The notes: generated from the sequence alone by a model not told the origin. A DNA stretch of 64,000 nucleotides from Patescibacteria group bacterium (GCA_041661405.1 JBAZUL010000003.1:20707-84706); one strand, 5' to 3'. Positions 16,001-63,971 are shown, counted from the first letter of the stretch. Program-made: numbers and translations.

Positions 16001-16100
16001 TGCGTGCGAGTGCCGAGCGTGCGAGCGAGACATCCCGCAGCCGCAGGCATGCGGGATCCAGCGTGTGAGCAAATTATTGAGCCTGCCCGATCGGAGCGAG
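16001..16100 (-). repeat. GC-rich palindromic intergenic element, copy A
   Basis: It lies between the ackA stop and the start of the glycan operon. The 30-nt block GAGTGCCGAGCGTGCGAGCGAGACATCCCG (16008..16037) and GGCATGCGGGAT (16046..16057) recur at 42925..42954 and 42984..42995. It has an 8-bp hairpin, ATCCCGCA/TGCGGGAT. Confidence 0.7.
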
Positions 16101-42897: not shown

Positions 42898-42921
42898 TTT
42901 CCGGGCTAAAAATCAATGATT

Positions 42922-43003
42922 TGCGGGTGCCGAGCGTGTGAGCGAGGCATCCCGTCCCGCCCCGCACTATGCGGGGCGGGAAAGGCATGCGGGATATGGC
43001 ACG
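42922..43003 (-). repeat. GC-rich palindromic intergenic element, copy B
   Basis: GGGTGCCGAGCGTGTGAGCGAGGCATCCCG (42925..42954; 27/30 identical to 16008..16037) and GGCATGCGGGAT (42984..42995; 12/12). Between them is a perfect 12-bp hairpin, TCCCGCCCCGCA-cta-TGCGGGGCGGGA (42955..42981). Confidence 0.8.
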
Positions 43004-55556: not shown

Positions 55557-58205
55557 CTACCTCGCGAAATACATCCCGTCATCGTCATCATCCGCCGGAG
55601 CGCTTGCCGCGTCCGCAGTTTCGCCGCCAAAATCAGCAATAGTCTCTTTCTTCACTTTTCTCCGGCCGGATTTTTTTTCCGCGATTTTTTCTAATACATC
55701 CTCGGCCTTCTCTTCGTCATCATGAAAATCGTCAACCTCTTTTATGTCTTCTTCGCTGTATTCATTTTTTTTCTTTGCCGATTTTTTTCTGTCTCCTTCG
55801 CCATCTTCATTATCCGGCTCATCATCGGTTTTGTCATCTTCATCCTCCTCATCGCCTTCATCATCAGCGTCATCAGAGCCTCGATCGATATCAGCGGTTC
55901 CGACAGGCAGGTACTCATCCGGCGCTACGGCCTCGTCGCGGTTATGGAGCGACACGCCGGAAACTCCGGTTTCTATCATGCCTTCGTATTGCTCCTTGGA
56001 AACTAAAATTTCTCTCGGCTTACTGCCGTTGCCCGGACCGACTATGCCATTTTCTTCAAGTAAATCTATGAGCTTGGCCGCCCGCGAATAGCCGACCGAA
56101 AGCCGCCGCTGTAAAAGCGAAGTTGAAGCCCGGCCCATATTGATGACGATCTCTTTAGCTTCTTCAAAAAGATCATCCGAATCCGCGTCGCCGCCCGACA
56201 TGCCGACCCCGCCTAAGCCCCGGACTTTTTGCCGCTCGGTAATGCCTTCAATATAATTAGCTTCCCCGCCGTTTTCTTTTATGTAGCGGACGATTTTTTT
56301 AATCTCATTATCCGAAACAAAAGCCCCCTGAATCCGCTTGGGCTTTGAAAGTTCGGCGGTTACGAAAAGCATGTCCCCGGAACCTAAAAGTTTTTCCGCG
56401 CCGAGCGAATCCAGAATCGTCCGCGAGTCAACGCTTGAGGCGACGGAAAACGCTATCCGAGCCGGCATGTTAGCTTTAATCAGACCGGTGATAACGTCAA
56501 CGCTCGGCCTTTGCGTCGCGAGGACTAAGTGAATCCCGACCGCCCGCGCCATTTGCGCGAGGCGGATAACAGCGGTTTCAACTTCCCGCGCCGAAACGAC
56601 CATCAAATCGGCGAGTTCGTCTATGATAAAAATGATATAGGGCATTTTTTCCAATCCAGTTTTGCCGTTCTTCTTCCCGTTATTCATGGATTCGTTATAG
56701 GACTGGATATTTCTTTTTCCGACTTTGGAGAGAATATCAAATCGCCGATCCATTTCGTTTAAGCACCATTTTAAAGCGTTAATAGTCTTATCCACGTCCG
56801 TAATAACCGGGGTTAAAAGATGCGGAATGCCGTTATAAATCGGCAGTTCCACCCGCTTCGGGTCAACCATGATAAACCGGAGATCATCGGGATTGTTCTG
56901 GTATAAAAGGCTGACTATTATTGAATTAAGACAAACCGATTTTCCGGAATTAGTCGCGCCGGCAACGAGAAGATGAGGCATTTTGGCGATATTATAAGTC
57001 CAGGGTTTGCCGGAAACGTCCTTGCCGAGGGAGATATAGAGATTTGATTTTCGGTCTTTAAATTCCTTTGACTGTAAAACCTGGCGGAGCCCGACTACCG
57101 CTTTGGTCTGATTCGGCACTTCAACTCCGACGAGTGATTTTCCCGGAATCGGCGCTTCAATCCGGATCGGGTGCGCCGCCAAAGCCAAAGCCAGGTCATT
57201 CCCCAGGGTCGTAATTTTCGCGAGCTTTATGCCCTCGGCCGGTTTAAAAGTGTATTGGGTTACGGTCGGCCCGACTGAAACCTCGCCCATGCCGACGGCA
57301 ATGCCGAAATTCTTTAGAGTCCTTTCAATCACCTCGGCGTTATTTTTTATATCGCCGCTCATCGGCTTGGTTACCTTATCGGATAACAGGTCTAGGGGCA
57401 GGTCAATTTTAACATGGCTTGATTTCCAGGGCTTTTCTTCTTCTTTTTCTTTTATTTTTTTCGCGTCCATGGCCGGATTGATTTTTCTCGCGCTGAATTC
57501 GGCTGCCGCGAGAATTTCTTCTCCGGCTGTTTCTTCCTCCGGCTCGTCCTCGCTTTCCGGTTCATTGTCCGGTTCGCTGTTTTCTTTTCGCCTCATGATA
57601 AAAGCCATGACCCGGTTAACCCCGGACAAGGCTTTGGCAAAAATGCTTTCGCTTCCGACAATGGCGCTTAAAGTCGTATCAAAAACCAGCATCAGGGAAA
57701 TGATAACTAAGCTAATAACCAAAATTACCGAAGCCCATAATCCTAAAACGCGAATCAGCCCCAAACCGAGAAAATATCCGAGATAGCCGCCGCCCCGGCC
57801 TTGTTCCAGAGCGGTTTTCCACTCATCCTGGCCGATAAAGAGCTGGAAAATGGCTTCCATTGAGAGGACAAACAAAAAGAGCCCGAGATAGTTTGATCCG
57901 CGGATATGGTATTTTTCCGAAGCGTAAAGAAGATAGCCGAGCCCGAGTAGCGCGAGCGGGAGCATGAATTTTCCCCAGCCAAATACGTAAGTCAAGCCTT
58001 TGGCGTAATAAATTCCGAAACTGCCAGCCAAATCAAAAAGACTTAAGACGCCGATCGCCCCGAGCGTAAGGATTATGACAATATAGATGCCCTTTTTCGT
58101 CGCTGGATCAAGATCCATGGACGGCATAGACGGCAGGCTCGGCGAATAAAGCCGGTTTAATAGTTTTCTTTTTCTTCCTCTTCTGGCCATATTTTTAGCT
58201 TTCAT
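55557..58205 (-). CDS. ftsK: DNA translocase FtsK/SpoIIIE with acidic C-terminal extension
   Basis: 882 aa with 4-5 N-terminal TM helices, Walker A GATNSGKSV, Walker B IIDELADLM and a gamma-like winged helix (SLLQRRLSVGYSRAAKLIDLLEENGIVGP). A D/E-rich tail of about 150 aa follows. Confidence 0.95.
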   Translation of the reverse strand: MKAKNMARRGRKRKLLNRLYSPSLPSMPSMDLDPATKKGIYIVIILTLGAIGVLSLFDLAGSFGIYYAKGLTYVFGWGKFMLPLALLGLGYLLYASEKYHIRGSNYLGLFLFVLSMEAIFQLFIGQDEWKTALEQGRGGGYLGYFLGLGLIRVLGLWASVILVISLVIISLMLVFDTTLSAIVGSESIFAKALSGVNRVMAFIMRRKENSEPDNEPESEDEPEEETAGEEILAAAEFSARKINPAMDAKKIKEKEEEKPWKSSHVKIDLPLDLLSDKVTKPMSGDIKNNAEVIERTLKNFGIAVGMGEVSVGPTVTQYTFKPAEGIKLAKITTLGNDLALALAAHPIRIEAPIPGKSLVGVEVPNQTKAVVGLRQVLQSKEFKDRKSNLYISLGKDVSGKPWTYNIAKMPHLLVAGATNSGKSVCLNSIIVSLLYQNNPDDLRFIMVDPKRVELPIYNGIPHLLTPVITDVDKTINALKWCLNEMDRRFDILSKVGKRNIQSYNESMNNGKKNGKTGLEKMPYIIFIIDELADLMVVSAREVETAVIRLAQMARAVGIHLVLATQRPSVDVITGLIKANMPARIAFSVASSVDSRTILDSLGAEKLLGSGDMLFVTAELSKPKRIQGAFVSDNEIKKIVRYIKENGGEANYIEGITERQKVRGLGGVGMSGGDADSDDLFEEAKEIVINMGRASTSLLQRRLSVGYSRAAKLIDLLEENGIVGPGNGSKPREILVSKEQYEGMIETGVSGVSLHNRDEAVAPDEYLPVGTADIDRGSDDADDEGDEEDEDDKTDDEPDNEDGEGDRKKSAKKKNEYSEEDIKEVDDFHDDEEKAEDVLEKIAEKKSGRRKVKKETIADFGGETADAASAPADDDDDGMYFAR

Positions 58206-58230
58206 GCCGGCTGGCGGCAGGTTTTGGCAA

Positions 58231-58262
58231 TAAAAAACAGTTAGTTTTATTTAACTGCTTTT
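58231..58262 (-). terminator. probable Rho-independent terminator downstream of the giant surface-protein gene
   Basis: Stem CAGTTA/TAACTG (58238..58243 and 58252..58257) followed on the minus strand by TTTTTTATT. The stem is weak. Confidence 0.4.
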
Positions 58263-58362
58263 AATTATATCATTTATCAGGGATGAAAAAAAGGGCAACG
58301 GAGCGTCTCTACAATTTGCGTTTACCGTTTCGCCCGCTATACGCAATCGCCCGGATAATGTC

Positions 58363-58401
58363 CTCCCGCGACTCGCTGACGCTCGCGCGGGACAGGCACG
58401 C
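58363..58401 (-). repeat. GC-rich hairpin element, copy C, abutting the TAG stop of the giant gene
   Basis: The minus strand reads GCGTGCCTGTCCCGCGCGAGCGTCAGCGAGTCGCGGGAG (39 nt). It shares GC(G/T)TGCCTG, CCCGC, TCAGCGAG, GAGTCG and GAGG blocks with copy D at 61821..61877. The hairpin is TCCCGCG/CGCGGGA. Confidence 0.65.
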
Positions 58402-61400
58402 CTATCTCTTGGCTCCGCTATAGGCAATCGCTCTCACAATGTCCCAAGCCATAGCGCTCTTTGGCGCGTAGCCGTAGATGAATTTAAAAGATTTGATGGC
58501 TTGTTTTTCCGAATTCAAATTCCTGTTGGCTGGTCTTAGGCCATAGGAGATTACGGCAATGGCGTTATTGTCGTGAGTATTGGTTTTGTCCGGTTCTCTC
58601 AGATAGATTTTCTTAAACGCCGCCTCGGCGTTCTTCTCAGTCACAGTGTTCTTCTGTCCCGGCCATCTGCCATTGGCGATTTTAATGATATCGTTCCAAT
58701 CGGTTTCGGTTGCCGGGTTTCGGCCAAAGGCCGATTTGAATGAGGCGATGACGCCGGAGCGTTCGCCCGAGCCTAGTATTTTTGTTGTCCCGGTTCCGGC
58801 GGTGATGAAACTGGTTAGAGCGTTTTTGGCTTTTGACGCTATAGCTTTGGCTTCGCTCTGGAGGGTTTCCAGGGCCGGAGTTGCGGTTTTCGGGGTTTCA
58901 CTATTGCTGTTTTTGTTATCATCGCTTCCCTCGCTGGCATTGGCCGCGGTTCCGGAGCTGTCGCCAATATCAGCGCCAGAGCTGTCATCACTGCTTCCAT
59001 CTCCTGTTTCATTATCATCATCGCTTCCGCTGTTCGCGCCAACGGACTGGTTTTGCTGGTTAAAAAGATAGCTGGGAACGGTATTGCAGTCCCGGGTGTA
59101 GGTCAGGGTATTGGAGTTAGTCGTGTTGCCGTTATTATCTAATGCCGCGATATACCAGGTATGGGCGCCGCAGGAGAAGTTTTGGGTTGGGTGTCGGGAG
59201 GTGGCGGTATTCGCGATATTGTCGGTATCCAGGATATTGTCTATGTAGAGCCGATATTTTTCTATGCCGGATTCAGTGTCGGATGAGGCGTTCCAGGAGA
59301 GCGTTGGCCGGGCCTCGGAGTTTACCGTATTATCCGCCGGGGAGGAGAGGGTGAATGAGGAGGGAGCGGCAGTATCTTTTTCCAATGAGAACGTATGGGT
59401 GGAATAGCCGCCCGAGTAGGTGAACTGGATAATACCTGAGGAGTCGGAGAGGCAGGTCAGGTTAGTTCCGTTGCCATAGCTCGTGGAACAAGTAGTATCG
59501 CCATAGCCGGTGATGGCCGTCGTAGTGGCAATATTGTCTATTTTAAATGTGTAGTAGGTACTGGCGAGGAGATCGCCTATTGTGTGGATGGTTGATGTGG
59601 CATGGGTCTGGCCAACGGCAGTGGCGCTAGAGGTCGCAATCCAGGATTTATTCTTGGCTCCGGTGGTTGACCATTCGGTGATGGAGATGTCCATGTAGGC
59701 CGAGGTTGAGGCCGTGTAGTACCCGCCTCCGGCGGGTACTACCGAGAAATTGGAAGTGGCGATAGTTTCAGTGGTGGTAGAGGCGGTTAATGCCCTGTAT
59801 TTGCCGTTAGAGTAGATCCTTATGGAGCCGGTTTTAGGGATGGCGTTCGTTCCCACAGTATAGGGCGGCTGGTACTCATACGCTCCGATGTCGGGGAGAC
59901 CGTAGATCGGGAAACCAGCGTAGTCGGTAGCTAGAGAGACGTCGGTTCCGGCGTCGATGGCGGGACTGTTGTAGGCCAGTTGGAAGTCGGCGGCGGCGGA
60001 GTAGTCGCCATTAGCATTTGTGAAAACAGGATTAGTCACAAAACCATTACTTTCACCGGATGCGCTTTGCCACGCAGTAAAATTTGCGCTCGCTACTCCA
60101 TTCCACATCCACCAAGCACCATCAACCGCATAATTATTATAATCAGCCACTGCAGTCATGCCCGCCGAAAATCTCACATGCCTAGTAGATGGCGTAGATC
60201 CAAAAATATTGTTTTTTATGGTAAAATTATGTCCCGTATAATTTCCTACATAAATACCATTTCCAGCTGTATATCCATAAAAAACATTATCATAAAAAAT
60301 ACCCGCGATACCTCCGGCGACAGTATTGTTATAAATAGAAGAGTTGAAACCATTAATGACATTATTATAAACTGTAACAGTTAAAGTCTGTGAAGTACCC
60401 AAATCAATGCCGTATAGATGATTGATTGTTCCCCCTGACATATAATTTCTATACACTAACCATGCTCCGGTTGGATAAGTATTAGCCCCAATATCCATAC
60501 CTCTCCTCGTATTTGTTATTATATTTCCATATATTTCACATCCTGATCCTCCAAAATCCCCCGCATATATTCCATTTGTATCTCCAGAATCATCTAGTGT
60601 GATAGTATTATTGTAAATCTTAACCGCACTGGAATTTACGCCGCTTACAGCTATACCCGAGTTAGTAGTACTGCCTCTTGTATTAGCCACTTTATTGATA
60701 GTATTTTCGTAAACATTGCCGTTATCTATTCCTTCATTAGTACCTGCGTTTGGTTCAAAATCGACGCCGGCATGTCCGCCACTGATTGTGTTACCAAAAA
60801 TATCCATGCCATCAGCATCAACAACAGCGATTCCTTGCCTGTCGATACTGTCCGCTCCTCCTCCAATTACATTATTACTAATAACAATATCTTCTGGTGT
60901 TTTTTCCGTTGCTATTTCCCAACTCACAAATATTCCATCTCCTTGAGTACCAATTTGTTGAGACTCAATCAAGTTTATTATATTGTTATCAATCGTTACA
61001 TTAGTAGCACCTCTAACGCAAGCGCCATAGCCAGTACCTGATTGAATAGTGTTATTATTTATATTTATGTAATCAGAACCAGGAGTAGCATAAATACCTC
61101 CTCCGTTAGTTGACCCGCTTGCCTCACCTTGAAAATATTCTATTACCAAACCATCTATCGTTATATAATCTTTGTCGTTAGTGCTTATCCCCATTCTTTG
61201 AGCGATTTCAAACGTATTTCCTGAAGGATCACTGCCGAGATATAAATTTCCGCCAGAATATTTCCATTCGTCTGCGCCAAGAGAACCGATTGTTCCTTTA
61301 AGCAAAACTGTACTTCCACGCATAACCCAAAAAGGTTCAGTAGCGTATGCCTTGTTGTACTCCCCATTTCCGTCCGGACCTGTCCAACCAGTGCCATTAT

Positions 61401-61842
61401 CCTGCATGCTGCCGTAAATCTTCGGATCATCCCCGCTCCCAAACGCTCCGAACGTAATTACACTACCGTCCGTCCCCGAAGCCGGAACCGTCAACTGCTC
61501 TCTCCAAGTTTGTCCTTTTCTAAAATAAACAAAGTCGCCAGGCTGAAGAGCAGCAAAAGCATTGATGTCGGCAATGGTTTTGAAGACAGAATCTGTACCG
61601 GTGTCGGTGGCGAAAGTAGTGTGGTCATAGGTGGTAAAATCCGGCGTGGCGCTCCCGACATTAGTGTCAGTCACTGAGGAGTCTACATAATATGTCGCCG
61701 CCTCCGCCCTCCCCGCCCCAAAAACAAAAAAACTTCCCAAAAAAATTGCGAAGAAAAAGACAAAATTAAAGAATCTGAAATTTTTAACTTTGAGATTTGA
61801 TTTTTGATTTTCTGTTAATCCCCCCCCCTGAGCCTGCCTCAT
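58402..61842 (-). CDS. giant secreted right-handed beta-helix protein with FN3-like domain and a repeated C-terminal module
   Basis: The ORF track gives 58402..61929. I prefer ATG 61842 (GAGG 7 nt upstream), giving 1146 aa. The signal peptide is KNFRFFNFVFFFAIFLGSFFVFGAGRAEA/ATYYVDSS. The N-terminal cap (FKTIADINAFAALQPGDFVYFRKGQTWREQLTV) and many PbH1-like turns (NNTI, NNII, GNTI, NNVI) indicate a beta-helix. The FN3-like region is PSSFTLSSPADNTV...PTLSWNASSD...YRLYIDN. An acidic S/D/G linker follows. The C-terminal double repeat ends in WDIVRAIAYSGAKR. Confidence 0.85.
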   Translation of the reverse strand: MRQAQGGGLTENQKSNLKVKNFRFFNFVFFFAIFLGSFFVFGAGRAEAATYYVDSSVTDTNVGSATPDFTTYDHTTFATDTGTDSVFKTIADINAFAALQPGDFVYFRKGQTWREQLTVPASGTDGSVITFGAFGSGDDPKIYGSMQDNGTGWTGPDGNGEYNKAYATEPFWVMRGSTVLLKGTIGSLGADEWKYSGGNLYLGSDPSGNTFEIAQRMGISTNDKDYITIDGLVIEYFQGEASGSTNGGGIYATPGSDYININNNTIQSGTGYGACVRGATNVTIDNNIINLIESQQIGTQGDGIFVSWEIATEKTPEDIVISNNVIGGGADSIDRQGIAVVDADGMDIFGNTISGGHAGVDFEPNAGTNEGIDNGNVYENTINKVANTRGSTTNSGIAVSGVNSSAVKIYNNTITLDDSGDTNGIYAGDFGGSGCEIYGNIITNTRRGMDIGANTYPTGAWLVYRNYMSGGTINHLYGIDLGTSQTLTVTVYNNVINGFNSSIYNNTVAGGIAGIFYDNVFYGYTAGNGIYVGNYTGHNFTIKNNIFGSTPSTRHVRFSAGMTAVADYNNYAVDGAWWMWNGVASANFTAWQSASGESNGFVTNPVFTNANGDYSAAADFQLAYNSPAIDAGTDVSLATDYAGFPIYGLPDIGAYEYQPPYTVGTNAIPKTGSIRIYSNGKYRALTASTTTETIATSNFSVVPAGGGYYTASTSAYMDISITEWSTTGAKNKSWIATSSATAVGQTHATSTIHTIGDLLASTYYTFKIDNIATTTAITGYGDTTCSTSYGNGTNLTCLSDSSGIIQFTYSGGYSTHTFSLEKDTAAPSSFTLSSPADNTVNSEARPTLSWNASSDTESGIEKYRLYIDNILDTDNIANTATSRHPTQNFSCGAHTWYIAALDNNGNTTNSNTLTYTRDCNTVPSYLFNQQNQSVGANSGSDDDNETGDGSSDDSSGADIGDSSGTAANASEGSDDNKNSNSETPKTATPALETLQSEAKAIASKAKNALTSFITAGTGTTKILGSGERSGVIASFKSAFGRNPATETDWNDIIKIANGRWPGQKNTVTEKNAEAAFKKIYLREPDKTNTHDNNAIAVISYGLRPANRNLNSEKQAIKSFKFIYGYAPKSAMAWDIVRAIAYSGAKR

Positions 61843-61877
61843 CGACTCGCCTCGCTGAGTCGAAGCGGGCAGGCAAG
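61821..61877 (-). repeat. GC-rich nested hairpin element, copy D, containing the SD and ATG of the giant gene
   Basis: Outer stem GCCTGCC/GGCAGGC (61832..61838 and 61868..61874). Inner stem TCGACTC/GAGTCGA (61842..61848 and 61857..61863). GAGG lies in the inner loop (61850..61853) and the ATG at 61840..61842. GGCAGGCTCA is shared with copy A. Confidence 0.7.
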
Positions 61878-62036
61878 CTATTTCAGTTTTTGTATATTCT
61901 CTTCTGTTTAGAGACATTCGTTGGAACATGTCTTTGGTTTTAGTTTTCCCGTTCCTTTCTTGTCTTATCTTCCAGCCAAAGGCGCGGGATTGGTTTATGT
62001 ATTTTAAAACTTTCTGGCTTGCTTGGTTCTTGAGTA

Positions 62037-62071
62037 TATTATAGCCGATTATTTCTTCTTTTTCGACAACA
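62037..62071 (-). repeat. 35-bp repeat (copy 1) spanning the last 7 codons, the stop and 12 downstream nt of the RhuM-like gene; contains TATAAT
   Basis: TATTATAGCCGATTATTTCTTCTTTTTCGACAACA is 32/35 identical to 63108..63142. The minus strand reads ...GAAGAAATAATCGGCTATAATA. Confidence 0.85.
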
Positions 62072-63050
62072 GCAATTTTTTCACTTCCCTGTCAAAATCG
62101 GAAATGTAATTTTTATCTTGCTTTTTGCGATATTTTTCAAACTCCGCTCCGGCTTTTTCTTCCGCCTCTTTGGCGCTGATTATTCCGGCGTTGGCTAGCA
62201 ACTTTTTCTCGCTTAATTTCAGAAATTCGTCTAGCTTGGATATCCAGTCTCGCATAGTCATCAGCCGCTCATTGGTAGCCTGAAGTTCCGCGAAATCAAG
62301 ATAAAGCGAGACGATTAAGTTCAGCTGTTTAATTTCTTTTTCCGACAAATAATTTTTGGCAATTTTTATGTCATGAGCGGTAATATAATTTCCCTTAAAA
62401 CTTGTCAGCCCCATCAGCGGCTTTTTGCTGTCGGCTCGTTTCACGATTATCTCGGCCGCCGTGTGCCCATGCACGGCATAATGCATCTTATTTTGCACCG
62501 TGGCGAAAAATTGTTTGGTGTTTTCCGTATCTTTTTTATAATCAACGCTAGTCGCGTAGATATCCGTCACTTTTTGATAAAAGTTTCGCTCGCTGGAACG
62601 GATATCGCGAATTCGCTGTAAAAGTTCCTGGAAATAACGCGCCCGTTCGCCGCCTTGTTTCAGCCGTTCGTCATCCAAAGTAAACCCCTTGATAATATAT
62701 TCCTTTAACCTCTGCGTCGCCCAAATCCGGAACTGGGTGCCTCGCAAAGAATTTATCCGATAACCGACGGAAATAATTGCATCAAGGTTATATAGTTTGA
62801 CTGGGCGGTTTACCGCTCTAACTCCCTCTTTTTGAACTACCGAGGATTCCTCGGATGTTCGATTTTCTTCTAATTCTCTTTCTATGTAAATATTCTTCAG
62901 GTGCAAGGCGACATTATCAATACTGCAATCAAAAAGCTCCGCCATCTGTTTTTGCGTCAGCCACACTGTTTCATGATCCAATTTCACTTCAACCCGGGTC
63001 TTGCCGTCGTCGGTAGTATAAATTATAATTTTATTGCTTTCTTTTTTCAT
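62049..63050 (-). CDS. rhuM: RhuM-family protein
   Basis: 333 aa. IIIYTTDDGKTRVEVKLDHETVWLTQKQMAELF...NVALHLKNIY, YNLDAIISVGYRINSLRGTQFRIWATQRLKEYIIKGF and SSERNFYQKVTDIYATSVDY fit my recollection of the RhuM family pattern. Confidence 0.8.
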   Translation of the reverse strand: MKKESNKIIIYTTDDGKTRVEVKLDHETVWLTQKQMAELFDCSIDNVALHLKNIYIERELEENRTSEESSVVQKEGVRAVNRPVKLYNLDAIISVGYRINSLRGTQFRIWATQRLKEYIIKGFTLDDERLKQGGERARYFQELLQRIRDIRSSERNFYQKVTDIYATSVDYKKDTENTKQFFATVQNKMHYAVHGHTAAEIIVKRADSKKPLMGLTSFKGNYITAHDIKIAKNYLSEKEIKQLNLIVSLYLDFAELQATNERLMTMRDWISKLDEFLKLSEKKLLANAGIISAKEAEEKAGAEFEKYRKKQDKNYISDFDREVKKLLLSKKKK

Positions 63051-63107
63051 AAATCAAACACCGCAAAAAAATCAAACGCAAGCTATTATTAGTTGCTTTG
63101 CTATCTT

Positions 63108-63142
63108 TATTATAGCCAATTATTTCTTCTTCTTCAACAACA
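63108..63142 (-). repeat. 35-bp repeat (copy 2) at the 3' end of the DinD/Bro-N-like gene; TTGAAG-N17-TATAAT promoter-like
   Basis: TATTATAGCCAATTATTTCTTCTTCTTCAACAACA. The minus strand reads TTGAAG aagaagaaataattggc TATAAT, about 60 nt upstream of the RhuM-like ATG. Confidence 0.85.
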
Positions 63143-63971
63143 TCTTCCCATCCGGTTTCCTTAAAAAGTTACCGGAAGATATCACCTTCTTTCCGGTCTT
63201 GCTCTCCAAATCAATCCGCGTTCTCCTCGCCACGCCTCCGCCTCTTCTTCCGGCAAGCTTGTTTTCCTCCATACTATCGGCGTTTTCACTTTGGGCGAAT
63301 TGCCGGGTAGAAAATTCCGCCAGAGCCGTGAAAATCAATTCCGCCTCGCTCATATGGTCGCGCAAATTTTGGGATTTTAGTCCTTTCAGATTTTTATGTT
63401 CCTTTACCGTCAGATCCGACCATTCCTTATGAATAATATTGGTTAGAATAGCAAACTCCTGTTTTTCGGAAATTCCGTGTTCACTCCAGTAATCCGTCAA
63501 TTTATTCCGCGTCTCCTGCCCCATCATCCTCTGCTGGATCCATTTTTGGCTTCGGCCGTGTTTTTTCCAGTTTTCCCGCGCCCGATTCAAAGACCTTTCC
63601 GGATCAGACATTTCCTGCAATCTTTCATAACCGACTTTGGCCAGCCACAATTTTATCGGTTCGGCTTTTTTGGATGGCACGGATTGGATAAGACGAAAAA
63701 TAGTTTCGGGATTAGCGACATCGGTTTCTCTCATTTTTCCATCTTCGGCGATCATTTTCAACCGGTTACATTTTGTAACCGCTTCACTTCCTTCCGCTTT
63801 TAAGCGATTTTTCAAAACTTTCCAATAATTTCTGGCTGCTTGAAAGTCGGGCTGATCCAGTAATGCCCGGATTATGTCCACCACAGAAAAATACCAAATC
63901 TCCGCCTTTTCGTCATAATGCCGGCGAATTTGGAAATTTTCAAAAATCGCTATTTTTGTGTTAGCATCCAT
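63120..63971 (-). CDS. Bro-N domain protein, DinD (DNA-damage-inducible protein D)-like
   Basis: 283 aa. The N-terminal sequence FENFQIRRHYDEKAEIWYFSVVDIIRALL is Bro-N style. The central/C-terminal VKEHKNLKGLKSQNLRDHMSEAELIFTALAEFSTRQ parallels the KEHNK...DHMGSTELAANLF region I recall from E. coli DinD. This was not verified by search. Confidence 0.65.
   Translation of the reverse strand: MDANTKIAIFENFQIRRHYDEKAEIWYFSVVDIIRALLDQPDFQAARNYWKVLKNRLKAEGSEAVTKCNRLKMIAEDGKMRETDVANPETIFRLIQSVPSKKAEPIKLWLAKVGYERLQEMSDPERSLNRARENWKKHGRSQKWIQQRMMGQETRNKLTDYWSEHGISEKQEFAILTNIIHKEWSDLTVKEHKNLKGLKSQNLRDHMSEAELIFTALAEFSTRQFAQSENADSMEENKLAGRRGGGVARRTRIDLESKTGKKVISSGNFLRKPDGKMLLKKKK

Follow-up and report, generated by a model that had tools for sequence, protein, structure and literature searches.

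In a Patescibacteria group bacterium, a gene for a large beta-helix protein ends in a stop codon that is followed by a GC-rich hairpin and then by a second copy of the gene's own last 13 codons. With moderate confidence, we interpret this second copy as the remnant of an earlier 3' end, displaced by an 81-nt module that recombined into the coding sequence of the last helix. The locus was analysed in a stretch of 64,000 nt (GCA_041661405.1, JBAZUL010000003.1:20707-84706), which we call the window. The terminus in use is designated T1 and the copy behind the hairpin T2 (coordinates in Table 1); related loci and proteins are cited by L and P numbers.

The terminus in use and its echo

The host gene ends ...AMAWDIVRAIAYSGAKR-TAG (stop at 58404..58402, minus strand), and reading on in the same frame gives ACLSRASVSESREDIIRAIAYSGRNGKRKL-TAG, exactly as an earlier reading made from this DNA alone, hereafter the sequence-only reading, had reported. 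The two arms of the underlying direct repeat (58415-58444 and 58334-58363) start 81 nt apart and agree at 25 of 30 positions. All other 30-mers of the window stay below 21/30, a value that the best of 300 window shuffles just attained, so the echo is real. A degenerate form of the coding core, MGNGCNATHGCNTAYWSNGG, finds zero-mismatch matches at only these two sites in the window. With a 1-nt gap in the Gly codon, the echo extends over 42 positions, 31 of them identical, as far as a stop codon; each copy then translates as D-I-(V/I)-R-A-I-A-Y-S-G-A-K-R-stop.

T2 encodes DIIRAIAYSG, a frameshift of -1 nt, and then AKR-TAA. Loci L002 and L025 have GGGGCGAAACGGTA (GGGG) where T2 of the window has GGGCGAAACGGTA (GGG), so that the frameshift is plausibly the loss of one G. 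The string "RNGKRKL" is an out-of-frame reading of AKR-TAA plus flank, and hence a frameshift artefact.

T1 and T2 of the window differ at 11 of 42 positions, and nine of the 11 lie in synonymous codon changes, including AGA/CGG twice. When each T1 was compared with its own T2 and the results were pooled over eight loci, 55 synonymous and 5 non-synonymous codon differences were counted, against about 45 non-synonymous differences expected under random hits. This pattern equals that of random pairs of family termini (6.6 synonymous to 1.0 non-synonymous per pair). T1-T2 identity (24-28 of 36) is likewise at the family background of 25.9 +/- 2.4, with the exception of L023 (34/36). Given divergence that is mostly synonymous and at family level, neither a target-site duplication nor a recent local duplication can account for the two copies in the window. 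The idea that an insertion had duplicated about 30 nt was accordingly abandoned; the halves of the two copies also have different nearest relatives. Judged from these comparisons, T1 and T2 are best taken as old, independent versions of one coding segment. A candidate third copy, older still, in the 12 nt after the stop had resembled A-I-A-Y-S codons; it was dropped, as a weight-matrix scan gave no signal there.

Both copies as canonical family endings

A search with the last 142 amino acids (aa) of the host protein returned 140 homologues at E <= 0.001, and those with a source name mostly carried Patescibacteria, Parcubacteria or Falkowbacteria labels. Among the matches listed, ...YSGxx[R/K] was the exact C-terminal end of 111 of 120 homologues, the commonest endings being AKR (43) and ATR (39). 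AKR is therefore the canonical terminus, and T1 and T2 are both canonical ends. The present terminus is the family's ancestral form; the sequence-only reading had assigned that place to ...GRNGKRKL, which is incompatible both with these homologues and with T2 itself, an AKR-TAA end after a 1-nt deletion.

A profile search found the C-terminal domain in 1,389 clusters at 50% identity, in proteins of 255 to 3,605 aa. It lies nearly always at the extreme C-terminus, and the rare exceptions continue with TSP3 repeats or a peptidoglycan-binding-like tail. No Pfam model matches the domain, and a Foldseek comparison of its model with the PDB gave nothing better than E = 2. The AlphaFold2 model of the last 112 aa was confident, with a predicted local distance difference test score (pLDDT) of 93.9 and helices at residues 2-5, 12-22, 32-46, 55-66, 75-89 and 96-107. 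In this model, T1 supplies the greater part of the last helix (residues 96-107), together with its 5-residue tail. Since the terminus is canonical and the last helix and tail are complete at T1, the fold has no place for an appended second copy.

The domain also consists of three internal repeats of ~40 aa (E..A...F..IY.R.P....D...I..IAYG; 58405-58990, minus strand, in the window and proteins P0241-P0387). In one family member, P0355, it is followed by the peptidoglycan-binding-like tail, which hints at a possible role of the domain in cell-envelope anchoring.

Ancestry of the half-termini and the 3' flank

The halves of T1 and T2 were compared with 94 termini in segments of 18-24 nt each. The first 24 nt of T1 match L002 at 24/24 and L162 at 23/24 (family mean 18.1, standard deviation 1.9). 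Its last 18 nt are instead closest to T1 of the hairpin-bearing loci L046 (17/18) and L078 (16/18; family mean 11.9). For the last 18 nt of T2, the best matches were L025 (16/18), L002 (15/18) and L162 (14/18; family mean 11.5). The four half-termini are of chimeric ancestry, and on these 18-24 nt segments the incoming and the displaced end differ in origin.

The affinity to L046 and L078 extends beyond the stop. Their 12-nt linkers are like that of the window at 9-10 of 12 positions, and both loci carry a hairpin and an echo. In this trio, identity is 74-94% over the block made of the T1 3' half, stop, linker and hairpin, compared with 65-71% over the C-terminal domain and 61-67% over the T2 3' half.

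The sequence behind T2 has a different character. The flank after T2 (ACGCAAATTGTAGAGACGC) is the one found straight after the stop in L003, L025, L024, L056, L006 and L162, where the stop is followed by ..ACGCAttTTGTAGAGACGC(N)GCGTCTCTAC. T2 together with its flank matches L002, L003, L025 and L162. T2 is continuous with a native-type flank, which argues that it is the stranded older end. From these matches, one L002/L162-like terminus seems to have been interrupted by an 81-nt segment comprising a substitute second half, TAG, the linker, the hairpin and a second copy of the first half. The proposal in the sequence-only reading that an insertion had stranded an older end is thus retained in part: a hairpin segment with its own stop sits inside one gene end and T2 sits on the native flank; the ending taken to be ancestral and the duplication by the insertion were wrong.

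Perfect palindromes like the enterobacterial repetitive extragenic palindromic (REP) sequences, GTAGAGACGC(N4-8)GCGTCTCTAC with the same 5' GTAG, stand after many family genes, also in tandem (e.g. L003 4340-4500). The window keeps only the left half, and the motif occurs once in it. The 39-nt spacer itself was rejected as a REP or bacterial interspersed mosaic element of the kind associated with RAYT transposases: it contains no GTAG, and it is the GTAGAGACGC palindromes of the relatives, present in the window as a half copy, that fit the shape.

The GC-rich hairpin

The spacer between T1 and T2 folds with a 7-bp stem, TCCCGCG/CGCGGGA, at 58392..58364. Its minimum free energy is -20.8 kcal/mol, and because the z-score against dinucleotide shuffles is only -1.5, the fold by itself is unremarkable. 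Hairpins homologous to the spacer occupy the corresponding position in L046, L078, L043, L058, L016 and L055, and two hairpin types, each homologous among its loci, can be distinguished in the family.

Type 1 comprises the window, L046, L078, L043, L055 and L058, and also L016, which is without a relic. It begins 9-12 nt past the stop with G-N-N-TGC(T/C)TGTCC and has the interior G(T/A)AGC-TTCA-GCG(A/T)A. Its outer stems covary (TCCGCC/GGCGGA, CCCTCC/GGAGGG, TCGCCG/CGGCGA, TCCCGCG/CGCGGGA) and its inner stem shows a T:A to A:T switch, as read from individual folds, given a MAFFT alignment that is not structure-aware and hairpins that differ in length. Type 2, CTTGTCCCGTCGGATGACGGGA, is identical at 22/22 positions, loop included, in L010, L018 and L023. 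At these loci, the neighbouring spacers are ~50% identical (15-58%), T2 67-89% and the surrounding DNA 50-80%. Full identity amid spacers of ~50% suggests some constraint on the hairpin. In type-1 loci, a Shine-Dalgarno-like GGAGGA precedes T2 within the 3' arm of the hairpin, and an ATG stands at the hairpin foot in L010, L018 and L055.

The sequence-only reading had treated the hairpin as a copy of a dispersed element. The window contains one spacer only at <= 3 mismatches, and across about 1 Mb of related loci the hairpin motifs occurred only at terminus junctions, so this idea did not hold. Two look-alikes, one in a radical-SAM gene (L063) and one in an unrelated genome (L133), were judged coincidences. 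A miniature inverted-repeat transposable element (MITE) or other dispersed repeat with target-site duplication was likewise rejected, as the repeats are 31/42 identical with mostly synonymous differences and the window holds one copy. Scanning of viral contigs for the hairpins found none. An Rfam search of 58100..58600 gave two sub-threshold matches only (23 bits against a gathering score of 64, and 21 against 50), and, on 12 related loci, nothing but tRNAs. Behind the hairpin stands GGACATTATCC, with no U tract, and a scan of 58100-58500 found no intrinsic terminator; a promoter scan of the same interval reported nothing.

A different GC-rich palindromic intergenic element is present elsewhere in the window in two copies, ATCCCGCATGCC... 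and ...GGGATG(T/C)CTCGCTC(G/A)CACGCTCGGCAC, each just downstream of a gene end (Table 1).

Recurrence across the family

We surveyed 87 termini from 82 fetched loci and the window; 80 of the loci came from at least 383 GTDB matches. A second terminus copy was found 65-96 nt downstream at 10 of the 87 (the window, L010, L018, L023, L043, L045, L046, L055, L058 and L078). The spacings in nine of these loci are 65, 78, 78, 79, 81, 88, 93, 94 and 96 nt. Weaker relics were seen in L003, L070 and L068, and decayed copies in L003 and L162. A GC hairpin always adjoins the relic. The point where the two meet varies among loci (before D, I/V, Y or S), and the relic is never longer than 13 codons.

Relics are stacked in some relatives, as serial displacement would leave them: T1 to T4 in L023; T1, a decayed T2* and T3 in L162-164; and T1 and T2* in L003. 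L013, L018 and L023 are syntenic orthologous loci, of which L013 has one terminus and L018 and L023 two or more, and the single terminus of L013 with its flank aligns to T2 and flank of L018. L016 has a stop and hairpin and no T2. Relics decay in several ways, namely by the frameshift in the window, by truncation in L043, as partial copies in L058 and L023 (T3/T4), and by substitution in L162 (VRVIAYSDAKR). Decay in several loci suggests that a constraint on T2, if any, is not universal. At its variable last residues, T2 agrees with the gene in front of it (SKR/SKR, AVR/AVR, ATR/ATR), often through other codons, as in L018 (TCT AAA CGG and TCG AAA AGA).

The relatives closest to the window in FtsK, the product of the next gene, were also compared. 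The FtsK protein P0121, from a Patescibacteria metagenome-assembled genome, is 100% identical and P0122 83%; another relative reaches 76%. In the 83% relative (L162, L163 and L164), a family-gene terminus lies directly upstream of ftsK, and three independent assemblies break about 75 nt upstream of that terminus. Breaks at the same spot in three assemblies suggest that the multi-copy C-terminal domain fragments short-read assemblies. In L162, the terminus is followed by REP-like palindromes and a GC hairpin abutting a decayed copy, AGA-CGATTGCG---TCCGGA-CGAAACGGTAA. More palindromes, the same hairpin, a third copy (VRVIAYSDAKR-TGA) and an ftsK leader orthologous to that of the window then follow. 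L003 shows the same arrangement of T1, palindrome, hairpin and T2* in another genomic context. The 76% relative (L165) is without a family gene at that site.

The closest gene-body orthologue, L082 (85% identity over 550 aa), ends AKR-stop with unrelated sequence downstream and without a hairpin, and the closest C-terminal relative, L001, also has an AKR-stop end with unrelated sequence behind it. The sequence-only reading had named two outcomes that would speak against it, uniform orthologue ends of this kind and an echo within chance similarity; L082 and L001 do have such ends, whereas the echo is far beyond chance.

A displacement model and the points against it

The module that would have displaced T2 spans 81 nt, from 58419 down to 58339 on the minus strand. 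It would open with the second half of a substitute terminus (S-G-A-K-R), followed by TAG, the 12-nt linker and the GC-rich stem-loop, and close with the first half of a further terminus copy. The gene would now stop at the TAG of the module, with its protein sequence unchanged. The old end (..GAKR-TAA and the native flank) would have been left untranslated behind the hairpin and would later have lost one G. The donor may have been another family member that already had a stop and hairpin behind its terminus, comparable to the L016 end without an echo. Entry could have relied, on the left, on homologous pairing within the terminus and the conserved C-terminal domain and, on the right, on short homology or micro-homology within the terminus; such an event would be a gene conversion or a homology-facilitated illegitimate recombination. 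If T1 and T2 then slipped against each other, as the hairpin would favour, the insert would be removed again and a single chimeric terminus left; L002, L013 and L162 look like such an un-split or re-fused state.

Several points weigh against this model. The right-hand homology arm is <= 24 nt, which is short for RecA-type recombination, and no donor copy is visible in the 64-kb window. The half-terminus comparisons each span just 18-24 nt, and the contigs of the 83% relative end before the gene body upstream of ftsK. Substitutions among the T2 copies of different loci fall mostly on third codon positions (10/3/30 as minimum counts, p about 1e-6), and non-syntenic loci share the block of domain, T1, hairpin, T2 and terminator in colinear form at 72-79% identity. 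Had T2 been passed on with this block as an ordinary untranslated relic, it would not be expected to keep such a coding-like substitution pattern; the pattern needs either repeated recombinational turnover, which the model assumes, or real selection on T2. The model also does not name the constraint that keeps the type 2 hairpin identical at 22/22 positions. Two readings therefore remain for the coding signature of T2: cycling between a used and a stranded state by frequent recombination and excision, or selection on T2. The relic in the window, for its part, is almost certainly inert.

Alternative explanations

Selection on T2 leads to an alternative that we hold tentatively and consider unlikely, namely that T2 and the hairpin are not a relic and form a maintained functional module. 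They would then be a selected device of this family, an untranslated, protein-constrained spare last helix behind a stem-loop, and might serve as a spare terminus or docking site, a coupled mini-ORF (open reading frame) or an RNA or DNA recognition site. The third-position bias among T2 copies, the 55:5 ratio between T1 and T2, the last residues of T2 that follow those of their own gene, and the type 2 hairpin conserved more strictly than T2 and the spacers around it would all fit. The GGAGGA before T2 in type 1 loci and the ATG at three hairpin feet also fit. However, T2 is frameshifted in the window and truncated or partial in L043, L058, L023 (T3/T4) and L070, and non-synonymous decay is seen in T3 of L162 and in T2* of L162 and L003. 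Only 3 of 9 loci have a canonical start codon in frame with T2, the variable hairpin-T2 junction speaks against a fixed recombination core, and most close relatives are without the module. The ten neighbouring products that were scanned included neither a recombinase nor a reverse transcriptase. If the device were real, it would be a recombination landing pad or a means of unconventional expression, by which family genes exchange or regenerate their 3' ends, and a post-stop sequence would be evolving under codon-level purifying selection.

We give little credence to a deletion between two adjacent family genes. The second gene, before ftsK, would have been lost except for its last 13 codons by a deletion with one end just behind the 3' hairpin of the first gene and the other at its own Trp-Asp codons. 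Family genes often stand in tandem (L020, L024, L031, L056, L067), and the 83% relative has a family gene with a T2-type flank directly upstream of ftsK, whose end is about 80% identical to T2 and its flank. Palindromes are known hot spots for deletion end-points. On the other hand, the first 24 nt of T1 match the same lineage as the 3' half of T2 (L002 24/24, L162 23/24). The last-helix codons of the host gene are thus already of the type of the T2 3' half, and insertion into one terminus fits better than a junction of two genes. Moreover, the relic starts within the last 13 codons in all 10 loci, and relics of 30-100 codons were not seen, which is unlike random deletions. Finally, a hairpin is missing after the stop of the orthologue L082.

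A local tandem duplication of ~81 nt, by replication slippage or template switching at the hairpin and followed by long divergence, appears improbable. The geometry of direct repeats with a hairpin between them is as this explanation predicts, GGA/GGGA micro-homology exists at the hairpin foot and the Trp-Asp codons, and the near-identical T1 and T2 of L023 (34/36) indicate that local copying or conversion happens. An untranslated copy, however, should gain mostly non-synonymous-type changes, contrary to the 55:5 observed. The differing nearest relatives of the T1 and T2 halves also disagree with it, and the two L023 spacers, supposedly co-duplicated, are only about 50% alike.

Recoding, in which TAG read-through or ribosomal bypass of the hairpin would add or re-use the second motif (junction ..AKR-X-ACLSRASVSESRE..), is highly improbable: the window T2 lies in frame at 81 nt behind a spacer without a stop, and the order of stop, hairpin and matching sequence recalls T4 gene 60 and mitochondrial byp elements, but spacings of 65, 79, 88 and 94 nt put 4 of 9 loci out of frame, the in-frame spacer of L046 holds a TAG, TAG is an ordinary stop in the window (TAA 32, TAG 10 and TGA 5 among 47 long ORFs), T1 already completes the protein, the final Arg codon of T1 in the window is AGA as against the CGG Arg codons of T2, and the T2 frame is broken by the 1-nt deletion. 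The read-through option raised in the sequence-only reading falls with it. As a general feature, recoding lacks support, and so does an independent mini-ORF.

Two further classes were considered and rejected. An integron attC site does not fit, as the flanks are CTTGTCC...GGA-GGAYAT rather than RYYYAAC/GTTRRRY cores, the crossover codon varies, and no integrase occurs among the ten neighbours scanned. A diversity-generating retroelement does not fit either: the repeat is 42 nt and not ~100, its differences (G/A, G/C, A/C, A/G, C/G and the like) are not adenine-specific, and the same ten neighbours include no reverse transcriptase.

Comparison with known systems

The displacement model has its closest parallel in orphaned 3' ends. 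Such ends have been described in type VI secretion system (T6SS) effector-immunity arrays and rhs loci, for which homology-facilitated illegitimate recombination was proposed (Kirchberger et al. 2017, PMC5361080; Jackson et al. 2009, as cited in PMC5361080). As in rhs, contact-dependent inhibition (CDI) and T6SS loci, the new 3' end is anchored on a conserved part of the gene and the old one persists downstream as an untranslated orphan, and repeated events stack relics with the newest next to the gene. The displaced tips in those systems, however, are long variable toxin or immunity modules, and function changes with them. Here the tip is 13 conserved codons coding for the same peptide, with no exchange of cargo and a conserved GC hairpin at every junction.

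Rickettsia palindromic elements, Correia elements and other MITEs resemble the spacer in that a short GC-rich palindrome lies within coding sequence and leaves the gene intact (reviewed in PMC10969869). These elements differ in having many dispersed copies, terminal inverted repeats and short target duplications, and they are usually translated in frame. The spacer described here is unique in the window and absent elsewhere in ~1 Mb of related loci, brings its own stop and is tied to the terminus of one family. Elements that integrate at 3' gene ends and bring a replacement end (attL/attR duplication) also double the gene end: the incoming DNA supplies the end that is used, and the native one is left on the far side. 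At the present locus, by contrast, there is no element body, no integrase among the ten neighbours scanned, only 39 nt between the copies and a variable junction. The bypass systems of gene 60 and byp share with our locus a stop, a stable hairpin and a downstream match to the take-off region; they differ in that here there is no coding gap to bridge, the protein is complete at the first stop, and frames and codons do not match across loci.

In the precise excision of Tn10 and Tn5, a palindromic insert between direct repeats is lost by slipped mispairing. The T1 and T2 repeats flank a hairpin in the same way, and the single termini of L002 and L013 resemble a T1 5' part joined to a T2 3' part. 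The repeats here are, however, ~70% identical, with identical runs of <= 8 nt, and excision is inferred. A literature search aimed at palindromic repeats in Patescibacteria found no description of this layout, and the motif string AIAYSG did not occur in the literature searched.

Host gene and surroundings

Features of the locus are collected in Table 1. A Pfam scan of the host protein identified Beta_helix (PF13229, E = 1.4e-10). At the same locus, NCBI has a product of 973 aa named beta-helix repeat protein. The true start of the gene is probably further downstream than that of the longest ORF, and translation probably leaves out the first ~30 codons of this ORF (MFQRMSLNRREYTKTEIACLPAST..). 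Another GC-rich hairpin, in the leader at the 5' end of the host gene, bears a weak resemblance to the 3' spacer. It begins ATAG-CTTGCCTGCCCGC..TCAGCGAG.. and holds an in-frame ATG (61841) preceded by GAGG. Its local alignment with the 3' spacer scored 25-26, the best non-self value, compared with a maximum of 24 for shuffles and 23-24 for other GC-rich sites of the window. This leader hairpin may lie outside the finding reported here.

Table 1. Positions of the features discussed, in window coordinates
Feature	Coordinates	Strand	Description
Other GC-rich palindromic intergenic element, two copies	16002-16090, 42921-43000	-	just downstream of gene ends
ftsK	55557..58205	-	Pfam FtsK domains; next gene downstream; leader (..CCCTTTTTTTCATCCCTGATAAATGATATAAT..) orthologous to that of the 83% relative
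AT-rich stem	58232..58257	-	CAGTTA/TAACTG then T6, behind the relic; read from sequence
Left half of REP-like palindrome	58303..58312	-	GTAGAGACGC, preceded by ACGCAAATT; native-type 3' flank of the sub-family
T2, displaced terminus (putative relic)	58322..58362	-	41 nt, one G lost: GAC ATT ATC CGG GCG ATT GCG TAT AGC GG- GCG AAA CGG TAA
GC-rich spacer	58363..58401	-	39 nt, GCGTGCCTGTCCCGCGCGAGCGTCAGCGAGTCGCGGGAG; stem-loop 58392..58364
T1, terminus in use	58402..58443	-	GAC ATT GTG AGA GCG ATT GCC TAT AGC GGA GCC AAG AGA TAG = DIVRAIAYSGAKR-stop
Conserved family C-terminal domain	58405..58740	-	last 112 aa modelled; all-alpha six-helix fold
Host gene	58402..61929	-	longest ORF, 1175 aa; large secreted/surface-type protein with right-handed beta-helix region
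GC-rich hairpin in 5' leader of host gene	61825..61885	-	weakly similar to the 3' spacer
RhuM-family and Bro-N domain genes	62049-63971	-	upstream of host gene; typical of mobile/accessory DNA

The AT-rich stem behind the relic, with its run of six T, is a possible intrinsic terminator; the consensus terminator scan was silent on it because the stem has fewer than three G-C pairs. It sits (58257-58232) between a TATAAT box (58269-58264) and the ftsK start. The ftsK ORF starts at 58205 (MKAKNMARRG..), and P0121 (877 aa) starts at the second Met, 58190. The gene order downstream of ftsK (a 579-aa protein, a metallo-beta-lactamase fold protein and GyrA) is kept in L165, and the side upstream of ftsK differs in every relative. 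With RhuM-family and Bro-N domain genes upstream of the host gene, this side of ftsK is a variable, accessory region. No synteny through ftsK was found in the 80 GTDB loci. The search for recombinases, integrases and reverse transcriptases covered the ten neighbouring products, the rest of the window lying outside that scan, and found none.

Implications

For the annotation of the window, the gene is intact and the post-stop tail is to be treated as a displaced old end; "RNGKRKL" should be neither annotated nor used in searches. Literature searches aimed at this layout did not find it; the hairpin-marked turnover of 13 terminal codons across the family thus appears to be a form of C-terminal displacement that had not been described. 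The recurrence also makes the family a natural test case, in which a post-stop sequence carries a codon-position signature that stems either from recombinational cycling or from a new kind of selection, two origins that obtainable data could separate.

More broadly, a very large uncharacterised family of surface proteins in the Candidate Phyla Radiation (CPR)/Patescibacteria (~1,400 clusters) shows recurrent turnover of its last 13 codons. This turnover helps to explain why assemblies break at these genes. It also suggests that paralogues or strains recombine often in these organisms, about whose recombination very little is known.

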